Assembly: GCA_965208325.1 (NCBI GenBank)
Contig: OZ242326.1
Location: forward strand, 2,976,001 to 3,040,000
Reading direction: 5' to 3'
DNA: 64,000 nt
Origin: Candidatus Poribacteria bacterium
GTDB taxonomy: Bacteria > Poribacteria > WGA-4E > PCPOR2b
Shown here one piece after another: positions 21,101 through 47,859 of the stretch. The translations under genes and the position numbers were made by a program. Under the pieces are notes generated by a model. That model saw only the letters and a program-made list of their open reading frames with translations. It had not been told where the DNA came from and did no database searches. Position 1 is the first letter of the stretch. The number at the start of each line of letters is the position of its first letter.

Positions 21101-21326
21101 TCCCCGCCAACTCCACTCCTTTGCCGGAAACGGCGGCAACCAAGAGTTAAATGCACCTTCCGCCATGCTGCCTAGCGGTCAGCGCGCGCAGTTGGAAGCC
21201 CAAGAAAAACGCGTGGCGTCCATGCAGTCCGACGCACCGCCTTGCCACGCCTGCGGTTCAATCATGGTACGCAACGGAACCTGCTACCGCTGCCTCAACT
21301 GCGGCGAAACCAGCGGCTGCTCGTAA
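18159..21326 (+). CDS. nrdJ: Vitamin B12-dependent (class II) ribonucleotide reductase with C-terminal TSCPD/Zn-ribbon
   Basis: 'FNSPVWFN', 'SACFI', 'TNPCSE', 'APTGTI', 'GAISKTVN', C-terminal 'C..CG..MVRNGTCYRC..CGETSGCS'. Confidence 0.96.
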   Translation: MAKAKKSKSRDDQIVGAPTAENKRHQKAGLKIERFFTTPGVHPYEEIEWEHRDSAIYDEKGEVIFQQTEVEVPTSWSQLATDIAASKYFRKAGVPGTEQESSARQLIQRVAHTIRQSGAQMGGYFASPEDAETFEAELTYLLITQRGAFNSPVWFNCGLWHEYGIKGSGGNYCWDFETERVEKTKNAYERPQNSACFIQSVDDSLDSMLALQKSEVRLFKYGSGTGSNFSQIRAKGEHLSGGGASSGVLSFLEGFDRWAGSIKSGGTTRRAAKMVILDMDHPEIVDYIDWKLREEKKVQALIAGGYPADFNGEAYRTISGQNSNNSVRIPDAFMESYLKDGDWKTTYRVSREVASEYKATWLMDKIAHAAWACADPGVQFDDTIQRWNTCKSSDRINATNPCSEFVFLDDTACNLASINLAKFLQDDGSFDVDAFRQAVRVFITAMEIIVDLSAYPMEKIARRSHEFRPLGLGYANLGTLLMLNGIPYDSDEARAWAASISAILSGHGYRTSAEIAGSVGPFPQFEVNSQSMLEVMQMHREAAYEISEADCPDNLLEAAREDWDICLQLGERYGYRNSQISVIAPTGTIAFLMDCDTTGIEPDFALVKFKKLAGGGYFKIVNQSVPKAMEQLGYTPDQIDEIVAYIVGTASLNGTPINPEMLKEKGFTDEDLAKIESVLPTAFDLNIAFAPLTLGEATLQRLGISAESAQAPGFSILRTLGFNREDIDAAEEIICGRGTVEGAPHLKPEHYPIFDCANKCGRTGTRYITPMGPVKMMAAVQPFISGAISKTVNLPNEVSEDEIKQVYVEAWKLGVKCMAVYRDGSKSSQPLSTTSQQEAEEIESEIQVEYRPVRKHLPDERRSLTHKFSVGGHEGYLTVGFYEDGRPGEVFLRMSKEGSVISGLMDTIATMTSVALQYGVPLESLVEKFSHKRFEPSGYTNNKDIPIAKSIIDYVFRWLGLKFLAQSQSEEDESLEDQLVDPRQLHSFAGNGGNQELNAPSAMLPSGQRAQLEAQEKRVASMQSDAPPCHACGSIMVRNGTCYRCLNCGETSGCS

Positions 21327-21428
21327 AGCACGAGCATTCTAATATTTAGGTATCAAAAAGGGCGTCACGTCGGATTTTCATATGGGTCCAACGTGATGCC
21401 CGTATTATTTCAGGAGAGACAAAATTGG

Positions 21429-23411
21429 ATGGCTAGCCAAAATACCAAACCCTGGCTTGAGGACGTAGAAGGAAATCAGGTACTTGATATTATCAATCTT
21501 GACGCAGATCTTATTTTGGTTGAGGCGGGACCTGGTACTGGAAAAACTTTCGGTTTAGTTCGTCGCGTACAGAGAATTCTCCATCCACAGGGGCTTAATG
21601 TACCGGGCGAGGACGTCTTGGTAGTCGCGTTTAATCGTGCAATTGCAAAGCAACTGAGGAACGATATATACGAACGCCTAAATAACTCGCTACACGACGG
21701 TAAGCCAGTTATCTGTACAGTACATGCACTTTGTTTAGACGTTCTACGTAGTAGTCTAAGAATTCTTCTTCCGCATGAAGTGGAAGCGATGATTTATGAC
21801 GTTCTATGCGATATGCCACAGTTTCGTGAGAAGTTTGAAGATCAACCTCATGCTCAACAAGCATTCGAAAACCATGCAGCGAATCTTGAAGATCACATAG
21901 AATTGTGGCAATCCGTGGATTCATGGCTTCGCCGACACGATGCAATACATATTACTGAATTGCCAAGTCTTTTGACCGATAGACTTAAATGGGGCGATTT
22001 TTCGGACAAGAATTTTACACATATAATTGTGGACGAATTCCAAGATCTAACGCCCATTGAGCAAGAATTATTCCTTAAGCTTAGGGGTGAGCGCGGCAAA
22101 CTTGTGGCATTAGGCGATCCGCGCCAATCCATTTATACTTTTAGAGGGAATGATCCTGAGGGACTGGACAAAATTAATAAACTCCCGGCTTCATCCGTGA
22201 AAATTTCAATGACAGAATGCCGTCGTTGCCCTGCAGAAATTGTGGAGGCTGCAAATCGGTTAATGATACGATATAAAACAGAACCGATGGTTGCAACAAG
22301 TAATTTGACGCCTAATGTTCATGTTGTCGTCTGGAAATCATCAAGAGAGGAAGTCAAAGGGATGGCGCGCGCGATTGTCGAAAACATCGCCGCACATCCC
22401 GAAGAGCAGCATCTTGCTATGGTTACACGCCGTGAGTTCGGTTACTGGATTCGGGAAGAAATCTCCAAACAAAATATCAACCTGAAAATAGATCTCAGTT
22501 TTTCGGAAAGCATGTTAGAGACTTGGTCGGTACGTGAAGCGTTCCTCTATTTTTGTCTTCGAGCCGATCCCGATGCCCCGACTTGGAGAGCATGGCTGGG
22601 GTACCAAAATTCGTATGATGGTAGAAATTTCAAAGCGGACAATCGCAATGCCGACGCATATCTAAAGTTCTTAAGCGAATGTAACGATAGAATTACAGAT
22701 TTAGACGTTCAAAATCTCGCCAGCCGCTCCAAACAACCGCCCGGCTCGGGAGGTAAAAACCTTTGGCACCGTGCAAAGCGTCTAATTGAACTCAAAGAAC
22801 AAATACCATGGGACGGTGAAGACGCTGTAGCATTCCTAAAAGACGTCTTTGATTCGAGCAAATGGAACGCGGACCAATCGCCTAACCCTGACACTGCGAC
22901 ACTTGATATGAAGTTGATTCTGTCGAAGGCTTGCGATTTATACCATGAGTTAGAAAATCCGACATTTTCAGAACAACAGAAGCTAATGGAAGTTGCAGTA
23001 AAGCTCAGGTATGGCATTGCAACGCGAGAGCAATTTGCGCCCGATGAGCAATCTGATTTGCAGGTCGCTACACTGTGGGGGGCTAAAGGCGTTACGACCG
23101 ATCACGTGTATCTAATTGGTCTCTGTAACGAAGCCATTCCCGGCCCTCGCCGCGATAACTACCCCGGAACAAACGACGATCACTTTGAAGAGCAGCGAAG
23201 ACTTTTCTACGTCTCCATCACGAGATCAAAGAAAACACTAGTGCTATCTCGGGCCGAAAAAATACTCCTTGAGGACGCGCGTAGACTTGGTCTCGCGACA
23301 GATGGGGGAAAGGCCTTTTACCAGCAATTACAGAGGACGGATTTTTTGCGCCAAATCAAGGAATTCCTACCACCGTTTCAGTATGGCAATCGATGGAAGG
23401 GTTGCGTGTAA
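21429..23411 (+). CDS. UvrD/Rep-like SF1 helicase
   Basis: 'AGPGTGKT', 'VDEFQD', 'GDPRQSIYTFRG', 'AKG', 'EEQRRLFYVSITRSK'. Confidence 0.9.
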   Translation: MASQNTKPWLEDVEGNQVLDIINLDADLILVEAGPGTGKTFGLVRRVQRILHPQGLNVPGEDVLVVAFNRAIAKQLRNDIYERLNNSLHDGKPVICTVHALCLDVLRSSLRILLPHEVEAMIYDVLCDMPQFREKFEDQPHAQQAFENHAANLEDHIELWQSVDSWLRRHDAIHITELPSLLTDRLKWGDFSDKNFTHIIVDEFQDLTPIEQELFLKLRGERGKLVALGDPRQSIYTFRGNDPEGLDKINKLPASSVKISMTECRRCPAEIVEAANRLMIRYKTEPMVATSNLTPNVHVVVWKSSREEVKGMARAIVENIAAHPEEQHLAMVTRREFGYWIREEISKQNINLKIDLSFSESMLETWSVREAFLYFCLRADPDAPTWRAWLGYQNSYDGRNFKADNRNADAYLKFLSECNDRITDLDVQNLASRSKQPPGSGGKNLWHRAKRLIELKEQIPWDGEDAVAFLKDVFDSSKWNADQSPNPDTATLDMKLILSKACDLYHELENPTFSEQQKLMEVAVKLRYGIATREQFAPDEQSDLQVATLWGAKGVTTDHVYLIGLCNEAIPGPRRDNYPGTNDDHFEEQRRLFYVSITRSKKTLVLSRAEKILLEDARRLGLATDGGKAFYQQLQRTDFLRQIKEFLPPFQYGNRWKGCV

Positions 23412-23533
23412 GGATTCGGTCACTTATTTAGGCGACTAAAACCGGGTTTGTACAATATTGACGCATAAACTTTAAATTAGTCTGTAAAAATTCGCTTCGA
23501 TTGCACTATGTTAACAGATTCTGAGGTGTGAAT

Positions 23534-26500
23534 ATGAGCTTTCAGAACGTACTAGACAAATACAGAAAAATCGCTTTCTCCAAGCGCGACATAGGCGATC
23601 GTTTTGAGCGGTTGATGCAGGCGTACCTCAAAACAGACCCTAAATACGCCGCCAAATTCAAAACGGTTTGGCTATGGAATGAGTTCCCCTGGAAATTCGA
23701 CTTAGGTGGTGTTGACTCGGGAATTGATATCGTCGCGGTGACCCACGAAGGCGACTATTGGGCAGTTCAGTGCAAATGCTATCTAGAAGACGCACGTATT
23801 GATAAACCCGCCGTTAACAGTTTCCTCGCCACATCAAGCCGCGAGTTCAAAAACGAAAGCCTTCAAACCACTCGTTTTGCACACCGCCTGTGGATCTCTA
23901 CGACCAACCACTGGGGAAGTAACGCCACTGAGGCAATAACGAATCAAAACCCTCCCGTAACGCGAATCAACCTTTCCGATTTAATTGACGCCCCAGTTGA
24001 TTGGGAAAAATTGGATGCCGGCGTCCATGGTGAAGCCGCACGTGCACTCCGCAAATCGCTTCTCCCCCACCAAGTAGAAGCTTTGCAAAAAGCGCACGTC
24101 CACTTCCAAACCTCAGACCGTGGAAAGCTTATCATGGCTTGTGGGACCGGAAAAACTTTCAACGCTCTGCGCATTGCCGAAAGCGAAACCGATGGTAAGG
24201 GTTTGATACTCTTCCTCGTTCCGAGCATCGCTCTATTGGCTCAAGCGCTGCGCGAATGGAGCGCGGATGCTAACGAACCCATCAATGCTATCTGCATCTG
24301 CTCCGACCCGAAAGTTTCTGTAAAGAGGACCAGAAACCTAGATAGAGTCACCGTCAGTGTCGTCGATTTGGCGTTTCCTGCGTCAACCAATAGCAGGGAC
24401 ATTTTGCGCCAATTTCGATACATACAAATGAAAGATTCGCCGGGAATGACGGTTGTATTTTCCACCTATCAATCTATAGATGTGATATCCGAAGCCCAGA
24501 CTGTTTTGCTGGAAAACGGCTTCAAAGAATTTGACCTGATAATCTGTGACGAAGCCCATCGCACCACAGGCGTGACGTTGGCGAATGAGGATGAATCCGC
24601 CTTTACCAAAGTGCACGATAACCAATTCATCAAAGCAAAAAAACGACTGTACATGACGGCAACACCGCGCCTTTACAGCGATGACGCCAAGAGCAAAGCA
24701 GCAGAGGCCGACGCGATTCTTTGTTCTATGGACGACCCGAAATTGTACGGAGAGGAGATTTATCGCATCGGATTTGGTGAAGCTGTAGAACGAGACCTTC
24801 TCACCGATTACAAAGTGCTGATTCTAACACTCAGCGACGCAGATGTACCTCCTGCGGTACAAGACGCAATAGCCAACAATGAGACAGAAATCAGAACGGA
24901 TGATGTGTCAAAGCTAATCGGCTGCATCAATGCTTTGTCCAAACAGTTTTTGGGCGACGACGGTGAAACAAAAAAATCGGATCCCGAACCCATGCAGCGC
25001 GCCGTTGCGTTCTGCCAAAGTATCGCTGTATCCAAAACGATAACGGCCGCCTACAATCAGCTAACCGATACTTATCTTGACGCTTTGCCCGCTGAACAAA
25101 AAGAGAAAATGGTGTCAGTAAATGCCAAGCATATTGATGGTACCATGACGGCTCCAGACAGAGATGAGATGCTCGGATGGTTAAAAGCCTCCACCGAAAA
25201 CAACGAGTGTCGTGTCCTAACAAACGTCCGTGTGCTTAGTGAAGGCGTAGATGTTCCATCCTTAGATGCCGTCTTGTTTATATCCGCGAAGAACTCCCAG
25301 GTGGACGTGGTCCAATCGGTGGGACGGGTTATGCGCCGATCGCCAGGCAAGAAATACGGTTACATTATTATTCCGGTTGTCGTGCCGCCGGATGTCCCCC
25401 CTGAAAAAGCGCTCGACGACAACGAACGGTACAAAGTCGTCTGGACAGTGCTTTATGCCCTTCGAGCACATGACGACCGCTTCAATGCAACGGTAAACAA
25501 AATAGACCTCAACAAAAAACGCCCACCCCAAATCATAGTAGGTGGTCCTGAAATCACTTTCGATGAGAATGGTAATCCGATATTCATCAAAGAGGATTCC
25601 GCCAGCTACGAGGACAATGACGCGATTGCACACCAACTGATGTTGCGGTTTGAAGAACTGCAAACTGTTATATTCGCACGCATGGTGCAAAAGGTTGGCG
25701 ACCGCCTGTATTGGGAGCAGTGGGCGAAAGATGTTGCAGCTATTGTAGAGCGTCAAATTGAACGAATCAATTACCTTGTCTCGTCCAAACAGGACCAAAA
25801 AGTCGTATTCCAAACCTTCGTTGCTGGCCTGCAAAAGAACATCAATCCAAGCATCACCGAAGATCAAGCCGTAGAGATGCTCGGTCAGCACATAATCACA
25901 CAACCCATTTTTGAAGTCCTATTTGAAGATTACTCCTTCGCAAAAAGCAACCCTGTTTCCACGGCGATGCAGCGAATGTTGGATGAATTAGAAGGCGAAT
26001 CCGTGGCTGAAGACTCGGCAAAGTTGGCGCGGTTCTATGAATCCGTAAAGAAACGGGCGGCGGATATCGACAATGCGGAAGGTAAGCAGCGCATCATCAT
26101 TGAACTGTACGACAAATTCTTCAAAACCGCATTCCCAAAGATGGTAGAGCAGCTAGGCATTGTTTACACCCCAGTCGAGATTGTGGATTTCATTATTAAA
26201 TCTGTCAACAAAGTCCTGAAGTGTGAGTTTGGCCGTCAACTTTCAGATGAAAACGTCCATATCCTAGATCCCTTTACCGGCACGGGAACCTTTATTACTA
26301 GATTACTGCAAAGCGATTTGATCCCCGCCGAAGATCTTACTCGCAAATACCGGGAGGAATTGCACGCTAATGAGATTGTCTTGTTGGCTTATTATATTGC
26401 TGCGGTAAATATCGAAAATGCTTATCACGATCGGTTGGGCGACGAAAGCGGATACGAACGGTTTGAAGGCATTGTGCTCGCTGACAGCTTTCAACTAGGC

Positions 26501-28399
26501 GAAACGGACGAAATCCAAGCGTGTATTACAGAAATGTTCCCCCAAAATTCCGAACGGACCGTTCGGCAAAAGAAAATCCCGTTGCAGGTGATTATAGGCA
26601 ATCCACCGTATTCTGAGGGACAGAAATCAGCCAATGACAATGCCCCGAACCAAAAACATGACAATTTGGATGTTCGGATTGCTGAAACGTATGCAGAGGC
26701 AACTAGAGCGGCCAACAAGAAACCGCTTTACAATTCATACTTCAAAGCCTTCCGTTGGAGCACTGATCGTTTAGACCCAATTCATGGTGGAGTGGTTGCC
26801 TTTGTCACGAATGCGCAATGGATAGATGGCAACAGTTTGGATGGCTTCCGCAAGATAATAGAAAAGGAGTTCTCTAGTATTTGGGTGTTCAACCTGCGAG
26901 GAAATGCCCGTACTTCAGGTGAATTGAGACGAAAAGAGCGTGGCAACGTCTTTGCTGGCGGTTCGCAAAACCCAATTGCCATTACACTCTTGGTGAAGAA
27001 CCCTCGATCCAAATCAGAGAAAGCTGTTATTCGATACTCCGAAGTTGAGGACTACATGACTCGCGAACAAAAGTTGGCTCTCGTAAGCAAATTCGCAATC
27101 CTCGACCACCCTGAGATGCGGTGGGAAACCTTGCAACCCAACCAACACGGTGAGTGGCTAAATCAGCGAAATGACCTATTTGACGACCTTATTCCCTTGG
27201 GGGATAAGGAGCATAACGCCGATGAGGCCGCCTTTTTTGTACCCTATTACAGCCTTGGGCTTGCATCAGGCCGAGACGCCTGGTGTTACAATTCCAACAA
27301 AATGACTCTATCGACCAATATTAAGCAATTGATTGATTTCTACAACAACCAGAGAGAGGCTTTCCACAAAAAAAGACCGTCTGAACCCAAGCTAAGCGTT
27401 GAGGACGCGATTGAATACGACTCGACAAAGATTGCCTGGAACAGGACCCTGCAGCGGGATTTAGAGCGAAATAAGGAAGTCGTTTATACGTCTAACAGCG
27501 TGAATATAGCTATGCATCGCCCGTTCTGCAAACGATATGTTTATTTCGCATCAGAACTTAACGGCATGGTCTATCAACTTCCTAAACTCTTTCCTAAACC
27601 ATCCATACGCAACCAGGTGATTTGTGTTTCAGGGAAAGGGGGCACCAAGGGTTTTTCGGTCCTCATTTCTACCTGTATTCCTGATCTAAATAGCATCGGA
27701 ACTACCCAATGCTTTCCTCTATATTACTTTGCATCGCGAACCAAGCAAAATCCGACCCTGTTTGAGTCCGTCGAAGATAACGAAAAAATTCGTAGAGATG
27801 GAATTACAGATGTCATCCTCGAAAGAGCCAGAACTCAATATGGAAAAAACGTGGACAAGGAGGATATTTTCTACTACGTTTACGGAGTGCTCCACAGCCA
27901 CGATTACCGCACCATCTTTGCCAACAATTTAAAGAGAACCTTGCCCCGCATCCCTTTGACAGACGATGTTCGGGATTTTTGGACGTTCAGCAAAGCGGGA
28001 CGCCGCTTGGCGGATTTGCACATCAATTACGAAACTGTTCCCCCATACACAGGCGTAGGTGTCTGGGGTGCGGAACATGAATTCTACCGTGTAGAAAAAA
28101 TGCGCTTTCCAAAAAACGGACAAGGCGACACCATTATTTTCAACAGTAGAATTACGGTTACACATATTCCGCCAAAGGCATACGAATATGTCGTCAATGG
28201 AAAATCCGCAATAGCTTGGATTATGGATCGCTACCGAGTAACTGTCCACAAAGCCAGCGGTATCAAGAACGATCCCAACGATTGGGCGGAGGAAGTTGGC
28301 AACCCAAGATACATTCTTGACCTGCTATTGAGCATCATCAATGTCAGCGTCCAAACCGTGGACATCGTAAATGCGTTACCTAAATTCAAATTTGAGTGA
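23534..28399 (+). CDS. Type ISP restriction-modification enzyme (LlaGI/LlaBIII-like)
   Basis: Mrr-type nuclease 'IDIVA..WAVQCK'; SF2 ATPase 'MACGTGKT' and 'DEAH'; N6-adenine MTase 'LDPFTGTGTF' and 'NPPY'; C-terminal specificity region ending 'SGIKNDPNDW'. Confidence 0.94.
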   Translation: MSFQNVLDKYRKIAFSKRDIGDRFERLMQAYLKTDPKYAAKFKTVWLWNEFPWKFDLGGVDSGIDIVAVTHEGDYWAVQCKCYLEDARIDKPAVNSFLATSSREFKNESLQTTRFAHRLWISTTNHWGSNATEAITNQNPPVTRINLSDLIDAPVDWEKLDAGVHGEAARALRKSLLPHQVEALQKAHVHFQTSDRGKLIMACGTGKTFNALRIAESETDGKGLILFLVPSIALLAQALREWSADANEPINAICICSDPKVSVKRTRNLDRVTVSVVDLAFPASTNSRDILRQFRYIQMKDSPGMTVVFSTYQSIDVISEAQTVLLENGFKEFDLIICDEAHRTTGVTLANEDESAFTKVHDNQFIKAKKRLYMTATPRLYSDDAKSKAAEADAILCSMDDPKLYGEEIYRIGFGEAVERDLLTDYKVLILTLSDADVPPAVQDAIANNETEIRTDDVSKLIGCINALSKQFLGDDGETKKSDPEPMQRAVAFCQSIAVSKTITAAYNQLTDTYLDALPAEQKEKMVSVNAKHIDGTMTAPDRDEMLGWLKASTENNECRVLTNVRVLSEGVDVPSLDAVLFISAKNSQVDVVQSVGRVMRRSPGKKYGYIIIPVVVPPDVPPEKALDDNERYKVVWTVLYALRAHDDRFNATVNKIDLNKKRPPQIIVGGPEITFDENGNPIFIKEDSASYEDNDAIAHQLMLRFEELQTVIFARMVQKVGDRLYWEQWAKDVAAIVERQIERINYLVSSKQDQKVVFQTFVAGLQKNINPSITEDQAVEMLGQHIITQPIFEVLFEDYSFAKSNPVSTAMQRMLDELEGESVAEDSAKLARFYESVKKRAADIDNAEGKQRIIIELYDKFFKTAFPKMVEQLGIVYTPVEIVDFIIKSVNKVLKCEFGRQLSDENVHILDPFTGTGTFITRLLQSDLIPAEDLTRKYREELHANEIVLLAYYIAAVNIENAYHDRLGDESGYERFEGIVLADSFQLGETDEIQACITEMFPQNSERTVRQKKIPLQVIIGNPPYSEGQKSANDNAPNQKHDNLDVRIAETYAEATRAANKKPLYNSYFKAFRWSTDRLDPIHGGVVAFVTNAQWIDGNSLDGFRKIIEKEFSSIWVFNLRGNARTSGELRRKERGNVFAGGSQNPIAITLLVKNPRSKSEKAVIRYSEVEDYMTREQKLALVSKFAILDHPEMRWETLQPNQHGEWLNQRNDLFDDLIPLGDKEHNADEAAFFVPYYSLGLASGRDAWCYNSNKMTLSTNIKQLIDFYNNQREAFHKKRPSEPKLSVEDAIEYDSTKIAWNRTLQRDLERNKEVVYTSNSVNIAMHRPFCKRYVYFASELNGMVYQLPKLFPKPSIRNQVICVSGKGGTKGFSVLISTCIPDLNSIGTTQCFPLYYFASRTKQNPTLFESVEDNEKIRRDGITDVILERARTQYGKNVDKEDIFYYVYGVLHSHDYRTIFANNLKRTLPRIPLTDDVRDFWTFSKAGRRLADLHINYETVPPYTGVGVWGAEHEFYRVEKMRFPKNGQGDTIIFNSRITVTHIPPKAYEYVVNGKSAIAWIMDRYRVTVHKASGIKNDPNDWAEEVGNPRYILDLLLSIINVSVQTVDIVNALPKFKFE

Positions 28400-28499
28400 A
28401 AATCATCACAGGCCCTTTTCTTTGTTTAGGCATGAGTTGAAACGTGAAAAATCTGAATAACAGTCTCTAAATACAGATGGAATGAGGACGCAATTCTTT

Positions 28500-28934
28500 A
28501 TGAGTACACACCAAATTCACATATTCATTAGCCACTCATGGCACTACTCAAACCATTATGACACCCTAGCAGATTGGATCTTTGGAGGGAATTGGTCGGT
28601 CGGTCAAGCTTCTTTGGATTTTTTCGATTTCTCCGTTCCTAGAGATGACCCAATCCACAACGCTCCCACTGATAAAGCTCTCCAGCAAGCTATCTATAAT
28701 AAGATTGCCCGTAGTCATGTGATTGTCATTCCGACCGGAATGTATTCTCAATATAGCAAATGGATTAAAAAGGAGATAAACGGCGCAAATTACTACAACA
28801 AACCAATCCTCGCTGTCAATCCGTGGGGACAGGAAAGGACGTCTTCCGTCGTTGTCGACAACGCTACCAGTCGTGTGGGTTGGAACAAAAAATCTGTAAT
28901 TGATGAAATATGGAGGTTGTATAAACTAGAATGA
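28500..28934 (+). CDS. Stand-alone TIR-like protein (MTH538/DUF1863/ThsB-like)
   Basis: 'IFISHSW', 'SKWIKKEI' with the putative catalytic Glu, 'KPILAVNPWG'. Confidence 0.85.
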   Translation: MSTHQIHIFISHSWHYSNHYDTLADWIFGGNWSVGQASLDFFDFSVPRDDPIHNAPTDKALQQAIYNKIARSHVIVIPTGMYSQYSKWIKKEINGANYYNKPILAVNPWGQERTSSVVVDNATSRVGWNKKSVIDEIWRLYKLE

Positions 28935-29452
28935 CAGAGCATGATGTTTCTACTAATGGGATTCGCGACAACCTAGTCGTCAATTCAGAAGACGACTACG
29001 GCAATGATTACAAAGCGCACTGTCTTGAAATATATAAGCTCTATGTTGAAAAAGCGGACGCGATTAGTTCTCGTCGCCAGTCAGCAAATTCCTTTTTCTT
29101 GGCTGTTAACACCGCTGTTCTTGGTGTAATTGGCTATGTTGGGAGATCAGATGACGGAACAAAATTAGCTGTTGGTATAGCCGGCGTGCTGCTTTGCTAT
29201 TTCTGGTATCGACTTATTCGGTCGTATGAGCAAATAAACACTGGAAAATTCGAAATAATTCTCGAGATAGAGAACGAACTTCCACTTTCGCCTTATGATG
29301 CCGAGTGGGAAAGACTTGGTCGGGGAAAAAACCCAACGCTCTACAAGCCATTTACCAGAACCGAGATGGTTGTTCCGTGGATTTTTCTGATCTGTCATGT
29401 CGGCGTAATGGTAAATGCCTTTCTCAAAAGCTGCAAAGTCGGCTTTCCCTGA
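28931..29452 (+). CDS. Small membrane protein with about three TM helices, candidate defence effector
   Basis: ATGA overlap with the TIR gene; amphipathic 'YKLYVEKADAISSRRQSANSFF' followed by hydrophobic segments. Confidence 0.75.
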   Translation: MTEHDVSTNGIRDNLVVNSEDDYGNDYKAHCLEIYKLYVEKADAISSRRQSANSFFLAVNTAVLGVIGYVGRSDDGTKLAVGIAGVLLCYFWYRLIRSYEQINTGKFEIILEIENELPLSPYDAEWERLGRGKNPTLYKPFTRTEMVVPWIFLICHVGVMVNAFLKSCKVGFP

Positions 29453-29861
29453 AAATAAAATGCGCCCGCAATAAAATCTGCCGTACAATTGCCTTACCTT
29501 ACGGGGGCCAACGAGGATTCGGCCTTCAACATCAAATGCCAGACGAGTCTGGACGGTGGTCTACGCGGTTGAATGAATTACAACCAAAGCACCGAATTAT
29601 TCCGAACAGAAACGATATTTGAAATCAGAAACACTAGAGATCTCAAACCAGCCTCGTTCTTTCTAAAGCGATTCCAAAATCGCAGACACGAAAATTTGGT
29701 TTGTCCTCCATGGTTCCTTCCGCGTTTACATTTGCAATAGTAGCTTCAGAACAACAAATGGCCTAAAATGTACGGTCTAGCCAATAGTCGGTTTTCATTT
29801 AGGCTTTCCCAATAGATATAGGAAGATTCTCGATTTCTATAGCTTAATTTTATCGGCGGCA

Positions 29862-30170
29862 CTATTTGTAACCACAAGGAAACCGATGCTCTCCACGAAT
29901 TGTTGATTCTACCAGGCGTCGCTGGGCAGCGGACCATGTTGGCGTGTACCGGACAGCAATCTGAACAGTTCCTTGTCTGTTTTGTTCCCAACAGGACCGC
30001 CGTTCATGGCTGTCTATCCGCGTTTTGATTGTGGAAGATTCTCCCACATCGAGAAAATACCATTTACCGTTTCGACGATAATCAAGAATCACGTAGATTC
30101 CTGCACTATCTCTTAAACCAGCGGTCGTTTGGTATGCACCTGCAAAGTCGTAGCCTGCAATCTTAAACAT
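29862..30170 (-). CDS. Minimal GIY-YIG nuclease-like protein
   Basis: 'AGIYVI...YFLDVGES..IKTRI..H' and a C-terminal Glu ('RLVES'); AGGAGA RBS. Confidence 0.75.
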   Translation of the reverse strand: MFKIAGYDFAGAYQTTAGLRDSAGIYVILDYRRNGKWYFLDVGESSTIKTRIDSHERRSCWEQNRQGTVQIAVRYTPTWSAAQRRLVESTIRGEHRFPCGYK

Positions 30171-30313
30171 GTTGACTCTCCTTTCTTGATTTTTGTTGCT
30201 TATGCCACAAGTGTAGTGTACAATTTAACGTAACCGTATTGTGGCTAGGTAAGCAAAGGTTCGAAATTGATATACGTTGTCGTATTTCCAAATTATACTA
30301 TATCGTATTTATC

Positions 30314-30661
30314 ATGTCAAGGGAAAAAAACAAAAATTTCTCCGACCGTCTGCGTGAAACGCGCGAACGCCGAAATCTTAAACAATCTGAATTGGCTGAA
30401 CGGGCTGGATTACAGGTGGCGGCAGTGTCCCATTTTGAAACGGGCCGGCGGGCACCCTCATTTGATAATCTAAGGCGTCTTGCCGATGCCCTAAATGTTA
30501 CGACGGATTATCTTATTGGCCGTGCCGATAAACCGCGGTCATCTGGGCCTAATATAGATAAGCTGTTTCGTAGTGCGGATGAACTGTCTGGGGCGGATTT
30601 GGAAACTTTGGCGGAATTTGCGGAAGTACTTACCAAAAAAAACAAAAAAGAAGAGGCTTGA
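30314..30661 (+). CDS. XRE-family helix-turn-helix regulator
   Basis: 'LRETRERRNLKQSELAERAGL..AAVSHFETGRRAPSFDNLRRLADALNVTTDYL'. Confidence 0.93.
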   Translation: MSREKNKNFSDRLRETRERRNLKQSELAERAGLQVAAVSHFETGRRAPSFDNLRRLADALNVTTDYLIGRADKPRSSGPNIDKLFRSADELSGADLETLAEFAEVLTKKNKKEEA

Positions 30662-30668
30662 GTCCTTT

Positions 30669-31511
30669 ATGTCTTCTAAGCTTGACTATAAGATGGCGGG
30701 CAAACACGCTGAACATCTTCTCAATAAATTGGGCAAGATTAATCTCCCAATCAATCCGTTTCTAATTGCGGAAGAACACGATATCTTGGTCGAACCGAAG
30801 GAATTTGATACACCCATGGCATTTGGATGCTTACTAAAAGTGGGCGATAATTTTGGCATCATGTATTCCACCAATATAAAGAATGAAGGATTTATGCGAT
30901 TTACTGTTGCCCACGAACTTGGTCATTATTTCTTACCTGGGCATGTAGATGCTCTTTTCGTAAACAAGAAGGTACATTACTCAGAGAGCAACTTTGTTTC
31001 AGCAAATCCATTTGAATTACAGGCGGACCATTTTGCGGCGTCGCTACTGATGCCGTCACCAATATTTCTGAAAGAACTACGTCGCGCCGGAGAAGGGTTT
31101 GTTGCCATTGAGTCACTGGCTAACACCTTCAAAACTTCCATTACAGCGACAGCAATCCGCTTTGCCACACATGCTGAAGATCCGGTGGCCGTAATTGTTA
31201 GTGAGGGCAATAGTATTCAATACTGTTTCATGTCTAACGCTTTAAAGGAAATCAAGGGCATTGAGTGGATTAAGCGCGGAGATATAATTCCAAAATCGAG
31301 CAAAACAGAAAATTTCAATAGTGACAAAAATAACATTACTTTGGGACTCACCGCTGAAGGTTCGACGACGCTTGATGAATGGTTTGATGGTTCACCGGAA
31401 ATACCGATGAACGAAGATGTCGTTGGATTGGGAAGTTACGGCAAAACATTGACCGTTCTATTTACTAATGAACCGTTGGACGATGAAGGCGAAGATGAAT
31501 TCGAATGGTAG
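30669..31511 (+). CDS. ImmA/IrrE family Zn metallo-endopeptidase
   Basis: 'RFTVAHELGH', 'ELQADHFAASLLMP', 'F.TS.TA..IR'; 7 bp downstream of the XRE gene. Confidence 0.92.
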   Translation: MSSKLDYKMAGKHAEHLLNKLGKINLPINPFLIAEEHDILVEPKEFDTPMAFGCLLKVGDNFGIMYSTNIKNEGFMRFTVAHELGHYFLPGHVDALFVNKKVHYSESNFVSANPFELQADHFAASLLMPSPIFLKELRRAGEGFVAIESLANTFKTSITATAIRFATHAEDPVAVIVSEGNSIQYCFMSNALKEIKGIEWIKRGDIIPKSSKTENFNSDKNNITLGLTAEGSTTLDEWFDGSPEIPMNEDVVGLGSYGKTLTVLFTNEPLDDEGEDEFEW

Positions 31512-31786
31512 TAGATGTTGAAAATCTAAACAATCACCTCCCTTCTTGGAACATCTCAATTAATCCTTCAATCAAGCATCCTGTCTTAAATTGAATGAGC
31601 CTTCCCACTTAATCTCCGCCGCAGTAGATTTTGCAAAGATTACTGTGCCGAAAAATCCATTTCATAAAAATCCAAACATGATTGTCCTGTAAAGCGGTTG
31701 AACCGTGCGGAGGATTCGTAATTTCATTTTTCGTATCTCAATCGCGTAAAATCTCTTCAAAATCTAAATTATAAGGAGTATTACAA

Positions 31787-32650
31787 ATGCCTACAGGAAA
31801 CGGTACATCGTTAGCAAAAATTGAAGCAAATCGACGAAACGCACAAAAATCCACTGGACCCAAGACCATAGCGGGCAAAGAGAAATCAAAGATGAACGCC
31901 CTAAAACACGGGCTCGTCGCGCAAGCCACGGTGATTCCGGTCGGAGAAGCCAAGGAGGACGACACCGAATTCACACAGTTGTTGGATCGCGTCATGGCGG
32001 AGTTGGAACCCCAAGGCTTCATTGAGGAGATGTTAACCGAAAGAATCGCAATCTGCTACTGGCGGCTCAGACGCGCCGCCTACGCCGAAGTCGGCGAAAT
32101 TCGCAAATCGTTGGACACAGTGATTGGTGACGCCTCCGAAGACGACCTCTCTCGGTTCCAACGCGCCAAATTTGAGTGCGAATCGAAACGTCCTCAACCA
32201 AAATACTTGGCTGAGTTGCAGAACACCGTTCAGGGCATACAATTCTTGATCGATTTTTTAGATGATACTCGACTTGAGTTTGAAAACACCGGCGATCTTC
32301 GTAAAGAAACACGAGACCAACTCCGGAATTACCTGGGTTATAACTATAATCCAATGAGGGATGACGATTACTTTTCCTTCCATGAATGTGATGTCGAAGA
32401 CGAAGATGAGGAATACGAAAGTAACCTCGTTCGCATGCTCGATACGCAGAAAGAGAGACTATCCGCGAAGAAAGCGTTACTCGAAGAAAATCGAAATTTG
32501 CTACATGAAATCAATGTCATCCGCACCGCTATCCCCTTAGATGTCAATCGGATAGTGCGGTACGAAGCAGCGATTGAACGTCAACTGTACAAAGCGCTGG
32601 ACAAACTAGAAGATTTGCAATGGCGTCGGAAATCGGAATCTCAAAATTAA
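31787..32650 (+). CDS. Uncharacterised protein with N-terminal 'ANRRNAQKSTGPKT..GK..SKMNALKHGL' motif
   Basis: 287 aa ORF with AAGGAG RBS; further motifs 'WRLRRA' and 'RYEAAIERQLYKAL..L..LQ'; function unknown. Confidence 0.85.
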   Translation: MPTGNGTSLAKIEANRRNAQKSTGPKTIAGKEKSKMNALKHGLVAQATVIPVGEAKEDDTEFTQLLDRVMAELEPQGFIEEMLTERIAICYWRLRRAAYAEVGEIRKSLDTVIGDASEDDLSRFQRAKFECESKRPQPKYLAELQNTVQGIQFLIDFLDDTRLEFENTGDLRKETRDQLRNYLGYNYNPMRDDDYFSFHECDVEDEDEEYESNLVRMLDTQKERLSAKKALLEENRNLLHEINVIRTAIPLDVNRIVRYEAAIERQLYKALDKLEDLQWRRKSESQN

Positions 32651-32920
32651 CTCGTTTTTACGAAACGAACCCAAAACGAAGCCAAATTACCCGACGCCAT
32701 TTTCCCTCTAACAAGGGATCAACTGAGTGGATAACGAGGCGATAGTTTGGGCACTGGTGCTTTACGAACCGCCATTTATCAGCACCCAACCGGTACAATA
32801 TCCCAACCCTCTACGCCAATGTTACGGCCTAATCACAATAGCCTCTTTTTACGAAACGAACCCAAACAAACCCAAATTTCTTGCCGCACAATTTCTCTTC
32901 TGACAGGGGATCTAATTTTT

Positions 32921-33288
32921 GTAGGTTGGGTAGAGCGATTAGGCGAGTGAATAACGAGGGATCAAGCGAACGAATAGTGAGCGCGATAGACTTCACTAGT
33001 CTTCTCCGAAACCCAACGTTTTGGAAACGTCCGGGTGCCCGGTTGACAGTTGCCGCCACCAGGCTAATCCGAATAAAAAAGGGGGTTGTTTTGTAATTGG
33101 GGTGGGGGATGGTGATTGGGAGGTGTTTGGAATGGCGGAGGTTATAAAAACTGAAGACTATCGCCTTCGCTATTCGCTCAGTTGATCGTTGGGTTTCGCT
33201 GCGTTCAGCATATCTTGCACAAAGTTAGCCTACAGAACGATTGGTTATAATGCGCATGATTAGGTGTACCCGCTCTACCCAACCTACA
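32921..33288. repeat. REPIN-like element (GTAGGTTGGGTAGAGCG..CGAAACCCAAC and its inverse)
   Basis: Inverted termini GTAGGTTGGGTAGAGCG (32921) and CGCTCTACCCAACCTAC (about 33271-33287). Confidence 0.8.
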
Positions 33289-33672
33289 AAAGCCAAATAA
33301 ATTTGCGGCGTGACAGAAGCATCTGAAACCGCTAGCCTAATCACCAAATTTTACGAAACGAACCCAAAACAAACCCAAATTTTCCATCTACAACTTCTCG
33401 CCTGCCAAGCAAGTCTTGGGAGTTAGGAATAAATTGCCGGAACACGAACGGCATTTGTTGGGTGGATACGGTTGGTGCTGGTATACGCTTTCTTCCGTTT
33501 TGTATTTTAACGAACCTTTATATCATTGCGTATACTTTCTACTTCTGGTAAAATATAATGAAGTTTGGACTATATCGCAGGACGCTGGTAGGCCTCAATG
33601 AGAATAGCTTACATCGCGCACATTCCGATACACCACATGGTAGTAGTTATTTTCACATAGGAGATTCGAAAA

Positions 33673-33900
33673 ATGGCTGATGCAATGCCCTATATTCCTT
33701 TTCATCGTGTGAAGGATTGGAAATCTGGCGATAGAATCACCGTGGACGGTAATCCAGGGAAAATCCATGATATTGCTCAATTTGAAAATCCTTCAGGTTC
33801 CGGAGAAAAAATTGCGTCCATCGGTGTGGAATACGACAATGAACCTGGCGTTATTAGACTCGTTGACTTTGATATCCACCAACTCGAACTTGGACGTTAA
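33673..33900 (+). CDS. Small hypothetical protein, possibly SH3/KOW-like beta-barrel
   Basis: 75 aa with AGGAGA RBS; 'KSGDRITVDGNPGKI...IGVEYD' pattern. Confidence 0.65.
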   Translation: MADAMPYIPFHRVKDWKSGDRITVDGNPGKIHDIAQFENPSGSGEKIASIGVEYDNEPGVIRLVDFDIHQLELGR

Positions 33901-34035
33901 CAACTACCAACCACTCTCGCCAAAGATGACATCTCCCCCAAAGCCTTTCACATTGAGAGCGGTGTCTGTGGCATATACCCAATCTTCCTACCGTTAGAGT
34001 GAACTGCCTGACTATATTATTCGACAGGAATTGAA

Positions 34036-34917
34036 GTGGAACAGCAAAATCAAGCCATATTAACCACAGAGTTATCGGAGCAGATTGTCGCCTGCACTTT
34101 TTCTAAAGCAGATTTACAATCCCTCTGTGAAAAACTGCAAGAGTCGAGTTACGAAGCAGCGGAGGAAGAAATAAACCACTATATGCCGCTAGATCGACCG
34201 CCGGAACAAATCCTCGCAGATAGAGAAACGCTTCGATCAGGATTTGAACTACATGTAGCTGTACGAGGAATTGGCGACAAACAAGTTGTTGGAACAATTC
34301 CAGTGGTGTTTAATTCTCCTCGTTTTCCGGAGAAAGTAAAGGGTCTTTACATTGACAGTGCCATAAATTTAAAAAATTTGTACAATTGGTCTCCGAGAAA
34401 TCATTTCGAGTTGATTCTGGATTTTACTAAACCCGAACCGTTCAATCTATCACTTTCGCCTTCTGCGCCCACCCCAAATGGCAGCAATATTTTTGTTTCT
34501 GGGCGAAATGAAACTTGGGTTAATGGAGTTTACCATGCTGTAATGGAATTCGTCAAAAACAGGAAGACGCGCCGGCGATTTCTTCACAAACGTGGCATTT
34601 ATGATGTGCTTGTAATCTTTATAGGATTTCCATTCGCGTTTTGGATTACATTCAGGTTATCTGAATGGATAAACAGTTTGTTCGATGGCTTCTCGGTCTT
34701 TGTTCGAAATGGGGCGTATGTTTTTCTATTTCTGGTGTCGCTAAATATATTCAAAGCATTGTTTGACTACGCCAGATGGACGTTTCCGATTTTAGAGTAT
34801 AAGGGCGCCACGGACACTGCTCGAAAACATAGATATTTTCTGGGGACCCTAGCCATAGCGGTATTTGGGAATTTCCTCTATGATTTGATTAAGAGTATGG
34901 CCGCCCTAATCCAGTAG
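34036..34917 (+). CDS. Hypothetical protein: soluble N-terminal domain plus three C-terminal TM helices
   Basis: 293 aa AT-rich ORF; three hydrophobic segments in the last 110 aa. Confidence 0.8.
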   Translation: MEQQNQAILTTELSEQIVACTFSKADLQSLCEKLQESSYEAAEEEINHYMPLDRPPEQILADRETLRSGFELHVAVRGIGDKQVVGTIPVVFNSPRFPEKVKGLYIDSAINLKNLYNWSPRNHFELILDFTKPEPFNLSLSPSAPTPNGSNIFVSGRNETWVNGVYHAVMEFVKNRKTRRRFLHKRGIYDVLVIFIGFPFAFWITFRLSEWINSLFDGFSVFVRNGAYVFLFLVSLNIFKALFDYARWTFPILEYKGATDTARKHRYFLGTLAIAVFGNFLYDLIKSMAALIQ

Positions 34918-35296
34918 AATCCCCCCAGACTTTTTTAGAAATTCAAATTCAAAGCGTACACACCATCCCATCTGAATGGCTATCACCGCATGCGAGTAGC
35001 CCATCTCGGTTTGCTAACTCTAACCGGCGAAAACACTTCTCCTACGCCCTCTTGGAATCCAAACCCATTCAACGTAAACGTCAACCTACCGTAAGCGACG
35101 TGTACTTACGCCACAAGCCGGGAAGGGAACCTCCTTCCCCCGCTACAAATTTACAGAGTTTTGCAAGGCGTAAGGTAAAAAAGGATACATTTTTGCCAAA
35201 CGAACCCAATTTCTTCGAGCGCACAATCTCACGGAGAAAACATACCCCACACATTCCCCCGTTCCAATGCCGGCGATGCCTCTTTAGAACATTTTC

Positions 35297-36550
35297 ATGA
35301 CCCCAATCCAAAAATCAGCCCAACCCCATGAAAAACGCAATTTCATTGTATTCGTTGTGAATCAGATTTTCGTGCGTATCGGCTGGATATTTAAGACCGA
35401 AACGGTGGTCATGCCCGGCTTTCTCGATACGCATACCCCATCGGGCGTCATACGCGGATTCCTGCCGCTTATCGCCCGAGTCGGACAGAGCTTGCCCCAG
35501 TTTCTCATCGCACACCAAGTTTCAAAGATGCCCAGAAAACAGGCTGTGTTTATAGGGTCAGCGTTCGGCATCATGATCCCTTGGCTCGTTTTGGCGATGA
35601 CACTGGGGTTGACTGGTTATGCGGGAAATGTCATCGTAGGGTTCTTTCTGGCATCATACACAATGCACTGGCTAATGCTCGGCTGCAACATGCTCGCAAA
35701 CGGCACCCTGCAGGGCAAACTAATCCGCGCTGAAAGACGCGGGCGAATCCTGGCTTATGGCAACACCATCGGGTGCATGCTTGCGATTGCGGCTTTCTGG
35801 TTGGCCGCGCCGTACTGGCTGCGCGAAGGAAACACGAATTATGCCTGGATATTCGGAACCACCGGCGGCTTCTTCGGTCTCGCCGCATATGCCGGCTTGT
35901 ATTTCCGCGAACCGCCAGACGCAACCGTACAGGAATCTTCCCCCCTACTTAAGTTTCTCGGTTCTGGCTTGATGCTGGTACGCCGTGACCGGGACTTTCG
36001 CAGGCTGGCAGTGGTAATCCTTCTATTCTACGTCGTTTGGTTGCTTTTCCCGCACTACACCGTTTTCGGGATGCGCAGGTTGGGATTGGCGCCCGGGAAC
36101 TTTTTCACGTTAATCGCCGTTCAGAATACAATAAACGCGTTGAGTTCTGGGGTGATGGGCAATCTAGCCGATCAGCGGGGAAACCGGTTTGTGCTGCGAA
36201 TGCTCATTTTCATCGGCGCCTTAGCCCCATTGGCGGCTATCTTTATTAGCCGGTTAGCCATAGGCGCGGACCTCTATTGGATTGTGTACGCTTTTCTTGG
36301 ATTCATTCCCGTTTCGAATCGTGTTGTCATAAACTACACCCTGGAGATTGCTCCGCAACAAAAACACCCGCAATACTTGGGAGTCATGAGTCTCTTCCAA
36401 GCGCTCCCGTTGTGCGCGTCGCCTCTGCTCGGGCTGCTGATTGACCGACTCTCTTTTGAACCTGTATTTGTCTTCTGCTCGTTAATCACCTTGTGGGCAG
36501 TCTTCCTAACCTTCCGCTTGAGTGAACCTAGATTCGCTCACAATGCTTAG
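35297..36550 (+). CDS. MFS transporter (paralogue 1)
   Basis: About 12 hydrophobic segments; 'GNLADQRGNR' MFS motif A. Confidence 0.88.
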   Translation: MTPIQKSAQPHEKRNFIVFVVNQIFVRIGWIFKTETVVMPGFLDTHTPSGVIRGFLPLIARVGQSLPQFLIAHQVSKMPRKQAVFIGSAFGIMIPWLVLAMTLGLTGYAGNVIVGFFLASYTMHWLMLGCNMLANGTLQGKLIRAERRGRILAYGNTIGCMLAIAAFWLAAPYWLREGNTNYAWIFGTTGGFFGLAAYAGLYFREPPDATVQESSPLLKFLGSGLMLVRRDRDFRRLAVVILLFYVVWLLFPHYTVFGMRRLGLAPGNFFTLIAVQNTINALSSGVMGNLADQRGNRFVLRMLIFIGALAPLAAIFISRLAIGADLYWIVYAFLGFIPVSNRVVINYTLEIAPQQKHPQYLGVMSLFQALPLCASPLLGLLIDRLSFEPVFVFCSLITLWAVFLTFRLSEPRFAHNA

Positions 36551-47621: not shown

Positions 47622-47859
47622 TGCTTTCTTAATGGGAATAATCATCCGAATCTGAGTTTGGGGATTTATGCCGCTTGAACAAAATGAGGGTTGGGCGTAA
47701 ATTTTCACACCCAACCCGAAATGAAGGTTTACCCTTGTTTAATCGCCTGATGACAATTCCTAAACAACAACCCACCAAATAATCTAACATGACGAGCTGA
47801 TGTAATCGGAAAAACCGTCACGTCATCAGCGCTGATTGTCTTCTAGATTATTACTATGG

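Follow-up and report, generated by a model that had tools for sequence, protein, structure and literature searches.

In a 64,000-nucleotide (nt) stretch of a Candidatus Poribacteria bacterium (contig OZ242326.1, positions 2,976,001 to 3,040,000; hereafter, the window), we identified a gene for a small stand-alone ThsB-type TIR protein that overlaps the gene for a small membrane protein of the 8xMP (octameric membrane protein) family, Pfam PF24838. We lean towards the interpretation that these two genes form a two-gene Thoeris-like anti-phage module in which 8xMP would be a ring-shaped effector. Thoeris systems are defined by a TIR protein that senses infection and makes an ADP-ribose-derived signal, and by an effector that this signal activates (Yirmiya et al., bioRxiv, December 2025, 10.64898/2025.12.03.692087, cited here and below from the available part of its text). 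For the pair in the window, we infer a mechanism in which the ThsB-type TIR would act as the sensor of infection and, once triggered, would use its conserved glutamate (Glu) to convert nicotinamide adenine dinucleotide (NAD+) into a signal that is presumably derived from ADP-ribose. The 8xMP protein, a predicted three-helix protein of the inner membrane, would assemble as a homo-oligomeric ring and serve as the effector: binding of the signal to its conserved, putatively cytoplasmic face would open or disorder the ring, the membrane would leak, and the infected cell would arrest or die before phage release.

The TIR gene and the overlapping 8xMP gene

The longest open reading frame (ORF) of the TIR gene spans positions 28482-28934 and encodes 150 amino acids (aa), with an internal ATG at 28500 as the likely start (Table 1). 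The product matched the Pfam family ThsB_TIR (PF08937) with E = 1.9e-15 and 57.5 bits (cutoff 21.2), whereas the NCBIfam models matched neither this protein nor the membrane protein. When the Protein Data Bank (PDB) was searched with a profile built from 41 TIRs that are encoded next to 8xMP, the matches were 8fz9 (1.4e-11), 8wcf, 6lhy and 9b7d, the last of which is annotated as 'putative cyclic ADP-D-ribose synthase ThsB1'. The AlphaFold2 model of the TIR (predicted local distance difference test, pLDDT, 91.7) retrieved with Foldseek a generic flavodoxin-like or TIR-like set, in which DNPH1/deoxyribosyltransferases and the SARM1 TIR are listed too, and its top match by TM-score was 8fz9, a TIR of Bacillus cereus (TMq 0.66, TMt 0.72).

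The Glu of the motif WIKKEI, which occupies the catalytic position, is invariant in the alignment of 41 sequences and in all 44 aligned TIRs adjoining 8xMP genes, and a Trp near the C-terminus is likewise invariant in 44/44. Because the Glu is kept throughout, the partner TIR is argued to be an enzyme rather than a mere adaptor. In a profile alignment, the WIKKEI Glu is matched to the Glu within 'RYEIMKS' of ThsB chains 6lhy and 9b7d, that is, to residue 85 of the native protein, which we take to be the catalytic residue of B. cereus ThsB and to which the Glu of the window TIR would correspond.

The membrane protein matched PF24838 ('8xMP, octameric membrane protein') with E = 7.1e-37 and 126.7 bits (cutoff 30). 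Three hydrophobic segments (residues 54-71, 79-96 and 146-165; Kyte-Doolittle means 1.70, 1.82 and 2.08, respectively) coincide with the long helices 27-69, 75-114 and 143-169 of its AlphaFold2 model (mean pLDDT 80.2). Sequence and profile searches of the PDB yielded no solved structure matching the protein, and a Foldseek search with the model yielded no solved-fold match (best E 0.48). In a set of 5.8 billion proteins, we found 291 homologues of similar length, with PF24838 annotated on all 120 among the matches listed; one homologue (P0069) carries the NCBI name 'RipA family octameric membrane protein'. Against 1.84 billion cluster representatives (50% clustering), the 8xMP profile matched 3865 at E <= 1e-3, 2443 at E <= 1e-10 and 563 at E <= 1e-30, and an atlas feature search with the membrane protein returned PF24838 clusters as 26 of its 30 matches, the top three included. 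A search of the 5.8-billion set for longer, fused homologues produced one 373-aa protein with PF24838 as its sole annotation.

Conserved residues of 8xMP are found in the N-terminal helix ahead of the first transmembrane helix (TM1; Y35, K36, S46, R48, R49 and N53) and in the loop between TM2 and TM3 (residues 97-145; K106, E114, L117, P118, E125, W126 and G132); F56, N60 and W92 are among the other top-conserved positions. With three membrane-spanning helices, the conserved N-terminal region and the TM2-TM3 loop would be on the same side of the membrane, which we assumed to be the cytoplasmic side. Separately, two proteins of 476-477 aa (L059:4998-6428 and P0348) combine 8xMP with a C-terminal NMT1/THI5-like solute-binding domain, which, given three transmembrane helices, would be placed on the opposite membrane side from the conserved regions.

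A preliminary description of this sequence had noted a stand-alone TIR with the WIKKEI Glu, an ATGA overlap with the 173-aa gene, about three transmembrane helices in the product of the latter, a Type ISP enzyme directly upstream and the lack of a ThsA effector with a sensor domain in the window, and all of these features were recovered here: a PADLOC scan of 42 larger window ORFs detected neither ThsA (SIR2-SLOG or Macro) nor a cyclase nor any other known signalling effector. The profile searches that it proposed assigned the TIR to ThsB_TIR and yielded no model in PADLOC-DB 2.0.0 (2023) that matched the membrane protein; that this protein belongs to a named family had been missed.

Table 1. 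Positions of the TIR-8xMP pair, its sequence elements and the neighbouring island genes in the window
Feature	Position	Strand	Details
ThsB-type TIR gene	28500-28934	+	144 aa from ATG 28500; predicted sensor and signal synthase
8xMP / RipA-family membrane-protein gene	28931-29452	+	173 aa; PF24838; predicted homo-oligomeric effector
ATGA overlap	28931-28934	+	membrane-gene ATG 28931-28933; TIR-gene stop TGA 28932-28934
Catalytic-position Glu codon	28773-28775	+	motif WIKKEI; E98 of the 150-aa ORF, E92 of the 144-aa form
GAGGA, candidate ribosome-binding site	28484-28488	+	11 nt before ATG 28500; suggested by the sequence
GGAGG, possible role putative	28912-28916	+	in the last part of the TIR gene, 14 nt ahead of the membrane-gene ATG
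Type ISP restriction-modification enzyme	23528-28399		1623 aa; PADLOC REase_MTase_IIG; ends 100 nt upstream of the 28500 start
UvrD/GajB-like helicase	within 21393-28399		directly upstream of the Type ISP gene; PADLOC GajB 9.4e-36
102-aa ORF	29862-30170	-	divergent from the CapH/CapP-like genes; weak PDC-S14 match 1.3e-4
CapH-like helix-turn-helix protein and CapP-like M78 peptidase	30239-31511	+	PADLOC capH 2.7e-22, capP 2.4e-59; downstream of the pair
Island ORF	31787-32650		287 aa; no Pfam, PADLOC or NCBIfam match
Island ORF	34036-34917		293 aa; no Pfam, PADLOC or NCBIfam match

Conservation and evolution of the pair

We scanned GTDB representatives (one genome per species) with the membrane-protein alignment and analysed the best 80 of 137 confirmed relatives; these 80 loci were collected by the membrane protein alone. 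Among 67 same-strand ORFs ending just upstream of 8xMP, 43 carry a Pfam TIR domain (PF08937 or PF13676). With a hidden Markov model (HMM) built from these 43 TIRs and that of the window, a TIR ORF was identified directly upstream and on the same strand in 45 of the 80 loci, so that the co-occurrence across genomes, which the preliminary description had named as a check, is found. The pairing is far above chance. The distance from the end of the TIR gene to the aligned start of 8xMP is <=91 nt in 44 of these 45 loci and 314 nt in the remaining one (L079), whose membrane gene seems to be truncated. In 42/45 loci, the TIR stop and a start codon in frame with the membrane protein are <=20 nt apart, with a 4-nt overlap in 12 and a 1-nt overlap in 6, counts that are biased towards tightness because the start codon nearest to the TIR stop was picked.

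Judged by record titles and tree labels, the TIR-positive loci represent about 19 phyla, including Patescibacteria, Chloroflexota, Planctomycetota, Bacillota and Omnitrophota, and one locus is archaeal (Nitrosopumilus). On plasmids, 25 records contain an 8xMP match, and all three that were inspected encode a 'TIR domain-containing protein' followed by a 'hypothetical protein', as the plasmid 8xMP homologues are annotated in RefSeq. Of these three pairs, one adjoins a Type I restriction subunit, another is carried by a cyanobacterial plasmid, and the third is surrounded by toxin-antitoxin genes (Haematospirillum). A phage collection gave a single 8xMP match, in the same record as one of the plasmid matches. 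As the genes downstream are not conserved, the TIR-8xMP unit consists of two genes. A second TIR gene stands beside the pair in seven loci (L015, L028, L041, L045, L078, L033 and L047). In two clusters (L003:3402-3860 and L025:5538-6038), a separate SLATT_1/DUF4231 gene follows the TIR-8xMP pair, giving two membrane effector candidates per cluster, and the first of these has an additional ThsB-like gene 1.8 kb downstream.

Comparison of 39 complete pairs with the window proteins as reference shows that the 8xMP proteins are 38-58% identical to that of the window, whereas the partner TIRs split into a clade with 38-57% identity to the window TIR and a second clade with 12-20%. Even membrane proteins close to that of the window (58% identity in L027 and 54% in L029) are paired with distant TIRs (12-14%). 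Thus, the membrane protein is the conserved partner and the TIR is the variable partner. In Thoeris systems, the effector ThsA is conserved and the sensor ThsB is variable, and the correspondence with this pattern supports the assignment of 8xMP as effector and of the TIR as sensor. A quick maximum-likelihood tree of the 80 membrane proteins (IQ-TREE) ignores organism phylogeny: the window protein groups with that of a Paceibacterota metagenome-assembled genome, and a Bacteroidota copy groups with a Moritella copy. The TIR-8xMP pair has spread horizontally.

Genomic context of the pair and other settings of the 8xMP family

The pair lies in an island of about 14 kb with low guanine-plus-cytosine (GC) content (window 21000-35500; GC 0.43-0.49, compared to mostly 0.50-0.56 in the flanks), inside which all the defence-like genes are located. 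A 2-methylcitrate synthase has its best named relatives, at 77% identity, in Poribacteria, a lead that points to a Poribacteria-like host. Ribonucleotide reductase and other housekeeping genes flank the island on one side and a transporter-like gene on the other; no tRNA genes were found in the window. The Type ISP enzyme is complete (Mrr_cat_2, ResIII/Helicase_C, ISP_coupler, methylase and Type_ISP_C domains). No GajA was found beside the GajB-like helicase, and no CBASS core beside the CapH/CapP-like genes. The divergent 102-aa ORF contains, by eye, a GIY-YIG-like motif, and a perfect TTGACA-17-TATAAT promoter match precedes it (30320-30292, minus strand). Far from the pair, all on the minus strand, the window also encodes an RtcR/PspF-like AAA+ activator (49435-50868) and three large HEAT/ARM-repeat paralogues (45426-47714, 56872-59076 and 61829-63982) that match PADLOC HEAT-ARM_XIII with E values of 1e-40 to 1e-46.

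Elsewhere, 8xMP genes occur in settings of other kinds. Picocyanobacterial 8xMP genes without a TIR (L050, L051, L053, L054, L057, L058, L066, L069 and L074) are in most cases followed, 3 nt downstream, by a gene for a protein with an FGE-sulfatase domain, and with a response-regulator receiver domain where complete; ahead of them there is often a gene whose product of 330-375 aa fits no known family. This FGE-sulfatase-receiver arrangement is a second conserved operon of the 8xMP family. The 8xMP genes of a Beggiatoa group (L007-L009, L011, L012 and L040) have no adjoining small TIR and are found near STAND NTPases, namely a divergent DUF4062-NACHT gene in L008 and L009 and an NB-ARC-TPR gene downstream in L011. 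In L018, where 8xMP also lacks an adjoining small TIR, the divergent neighbour encodes a CAP12/Pycsar-type TIR protein.

Comparison with known systems, alternative explanations and implications

Like Thoeris systems, the pair combines a ThsB-type TIR that retains the catalytic-position Glu with a putative effector gene kept in the TIR operon; for the latter, the tight spacing and a natural TIR-8xMP fusion (P0267, described below) add to the pairing in 45 of the 80 loci. The available text of the preprint on Thoeris diversity describes 29 putative effector types, several transmembrane proteins among them, and the validation of types V-XI (10.64898/2025.12.03.692087). The type V effector ThsF (DUF2270, PF10028) has three transmembrane helices, was validated against phages, and is triggered by 3'cADPR; its model is a homo-oligomeric ring in which positively charged pockets are located where protomers meet (10.64898/2025.12.03.692087). 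Type V Thoeris and the window pair thus share a two-gene operon for a small TIR and a small three-transmembrane protein without a separate soluble sensor domain, an effector predicted to form a homo-oligomeric ring, and an occurrence in many phyla, apparently within defence islands, but the type V effector belongs to PF10028 and the window protein to PF24838. ThsF also bears on the preliminary description, which had considered the membrane protein too small to accommodate a sensor and had hence proposed direct contact or two cooperating killing modules. Since ThsF responds to 3'cADPR, as far as the available text goes, a small three-transmembrane protein can itself be the receptor, which counters that reasoning; of the minimal two-gene system that had been proposed, the conserved, coupled unit in a defence-type neighbourhood stands, whereas the argument for direct contact from protein size does not.

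In sequence comparisons, 8xMP has no detectable similarity to DUF2270, SLATT or ThsA, DUF2270 having been compared without a profile-profile test. An hmmscan of the membrane protein at E <= 1 returned only PF24838, Tmemb_14 (0.1) and Cul7 (0.19), and neither PF10028 nor SLATT nor Macro; its language-model neighbours, after removal of PF24838 proteins, included no DUF2270 protein (best score 0.82, in the chance range); and when the 8xMP alignment was compared by hhalign with a SLATT_1/DUF4231 protein, the probability was 0.9%. Types II (Macro-transmembrane) and VII, whose effector is a SLATT transmembrane protein (10.64898/2025.12.03.692087), resemble the proposed module, in which a TIR-made signal would likewise activate a membrane effector that kills the cell or arrests it, but the window membrane protein has neither the Macro nor the SLATT domain of these effectors. 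With type I (ThsB and SIR2-SLOG ThsA), the window TIR shares the ThsB family and the aligned conserved Glu, whereas ThsA is present in type I and matched 0/42 ORFs of the window, and the chains 6lhy, 9b7d and 9uv0 comprise 193-195 residues compared to 144 aa for the window TIR. CBASS and Pycsar systems with a TIR effector combine a cyclase with a TIR of family PF10137; in the window, no cyclase model matched, and the TIR belongs to PF08937.

A literature search, with subscription papers outside it, returned no paper on an 8xMP octamer or a TIR-8xMP system. PF24838, 8xMP and RipA are not named in the text of the Thoeris preprint (10.64898/2025.12.03.692087) as searched, that is, apart from its effector-listing Figure 1C and Tables S1-S3, and the available parts of PMC11350192 and PMC13069673 do not mention a TIR-8xMP pair. 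The Francisella protein RipA is described, in the available part of PMC4322802, as a homo-oligomeric protein of the cytoplasmic membrane with two essential cytoplasmic domains. Both properties fit the modelled topology of the window 8xMP, and a family link between the two is suggested by the NCBI name of P0069. In contrast to the TIR-paired 8xMP of the window, RipA is encoded by a stand-alone gene that is tied to lipid A synthesis and to growth inside host cells, and that part of the source mentions no TIR partner.

Several observations weigh against a Thoeris-like anti-phage module. The PADLOC ThsB models matched the window TIR weakly (best 2.8e-6), and the TIR, at only 144 aa, has no obvious additional sensor domain. 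Among the 35 TIR-negative loci, 5 have <300 nt of upstream sequence; 30 of the 75 assessable 8xMP loci therefore lack an adjoining upstream TIR, and the 8xMP family is not dedicated to TIRs. The top 8xMP residues are equally conserved in TIR-less homologues, from 13 loci of the picocyanobacterial clade (9 of them confirmed beside an FGE-sulfatase protein) and 6 loci of the Beggiatoa group. Because they are equally kept without a TIR neighbour, these residues do not mark a pocket specific for a TIR product, and it is more likely that they serve assembly or gating than TIR-specific ligand recognition. Ring formation by 8xMP is a prediction from the Pfam and NCBI names and the RipA literature, and RipA is linked to lipid A synthesis, through a genetic link with LpxA/GlmU, and not to defence (PMC4322802). 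Finally, the defence genes around the pair elsewhere speak for a defence module, but their rate is suggestive only because it comes with no control set: of 141 neighbouring ORFs of >=150 aa from 33 further loci, 20 had PADLOC matches at E <= 1e-15. These matches are distributed over 13 loci and are mostly methyltransferases or restriction enzymes; DarG, HmaB, PDC-S05, a caspase-like protein and an additional ThsB are also among them.

The partner-independent conservation of 8xMP would also fit a complex of fixed stoichiometry in which the TIR binds directly to the conserved, putatively cytoplasmic face of the ring, with no diffusible signal; the ring could then be a scaffold on which TIRs assemble into an active NADase when it is disturbed, or a conformational change of the TIR could gate the pore. 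We consider such direct contact unlikely, and retain it on account of this conservation together with a natural single-chain TIR-8xMP fusion, P0267, found once among 151 proteins examined (299 aa; TIR at 1-123, with E = 4.6e-38 for the partner-TIR HMM and 1.2e-4 for Pfam; 8xMP at 158-293; catalytic-position Glu present). The conserved translational coupling of the two genes is in line with it, as are two statistics of their evolution. Pairwise identities of TIR and 8xMP correlate (Mantel r 0.41; 0/2000 permutations as high), and TIR-clade labels are clustered on the 8xMP tree (8 changes for clade A vs. a shuffled mean of 15.7, and 11 for clade B vs. 23.2; 0/500 shuffles as low for each clade), with well-supported branches forcing just 1-2 TIR-clade switches. 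Shared descent alone, however, inflates both statistics. Thus, the two genes travel together and the partner is occasionally replaced, a pattern that fits a signalling link and a physical link alike. The combination of similar 8xMPs with highly divergent TIRs, seen in L027 and L029, is easier to reconcile with a small-molecule link, and loci where one effector is accompanied by two or three distinct TIR genes fit many sensors feeding into one receptor; moreover, every characterised Thoeris type in the available text of the preprint uses a diffusible product (10.64898/2025.12.03.692087).

Reversed roles, with 8xMP as the sensor (of the membrane disturbance that holins or phage entry cause, for instance) and the TIR as an NAD+-depleting effector as in CBASS, Pycsar and SPARTA, appear quite improbable. 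Many bacterial TIRs are NAD+-depleting effectors, according to the available text of the same preprint (10.64898/2025.12.03.692087), the Glu on which NAD+ cleavage depends does not vary, and the association of 8xMP with other partners (FGE-sulfatase-receiver, DUF4062-NACHT and NB-ARC proteins) might suit a reusable sensor or adaptor. Conversely, the TIR is a member of PF08937, the ThsB family, and not of the CAP12/Pycsar effector family PF10137, and it is the TIR that varies, as the sensor does in Thoeris, whereas the membrane protein is conserved. Small multi-transmembrane proteins, furthermore, recur as effectors in Thoeris types II, V and VII, CBASS and Pycsar, as far as the sources are available.

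A role outside defence, either as an envelope-homeostasis or signalling pair in which the TIR would be a regulatory NAD-consuming partner or as a toxin-antitoxin-like addiction pair on mobile DNA, is given an equally low probability. It could draw on the tie of RipA to lipid A synthesis (PMC4322802, available part), although the membership of RipA in PF24838 depends on the name of P0069, as well as on the resemblance of the picocyanobacterial FGE-sulfatase-receiver operon to signalling, on the Haematospirillum plasmid copy amid toxin-antitoxin genes, and on the 20/33 loci that have no PADLOC neighbour at E <= 1e-15. Against it stand the horizontal movement of the pair through about 19 phyla and the restriction-modification genes that adjoin the pair in the window and in several other loci. 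To our knowledge, ThsB-type TIRs are known from defence only.

Returning to the Thoeris-like module, a minimal system of a TIR and a small transmembrane protein is of an already known kind; new here is a candidate effector family that lacks earlier defence tests, together with the PF24838 assignment, the breadth of the pairing (archaea and candidate phyla) and the link to the RipA family. If the pair is among the 29 types of the preprint, its value would be smaller, leaving the PF24838 assignment, the conservation figures, the fusion and the partner-independent residues. As a more tentative extension, which we put forward as possible, 8xMP would be a ring-forming membrane executioner of a new, ligand-gated class, and the TIR with 8xMP would make up a distinct, widespread Thoeris type that is present in bacteria and in one archaeon or more and whose TIR product might be peculiar to it. 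If so, the FGE-sulfatase-receiver operon, the 8xMPs near STAND NTPases in the Beggiatoa group and RipA, a virulence factor of Francisella encoded on its own, would represent the same gated ring with other triggers, and RipA would gain a mechanistic explanation for the first time.

If the pair does defend, TIR signalling would gain a further, sizeable effector family, given the number of cluster representatives matched by the 8xMP profile, and would reach into lineages whose defences are poorly charted, such as Patescibacteria, Omnitrophota, Bipolaricaulota and Nitrososphaerota. With 144 and 173 residues, the two proteins would provide a minimal system for the opening of a membrane ring by a nucleotide signal or by a TIR, and an uncharacterised family that includes an intracellular-growth factor of a pathogen would be tied to a concrete biochemical activity.

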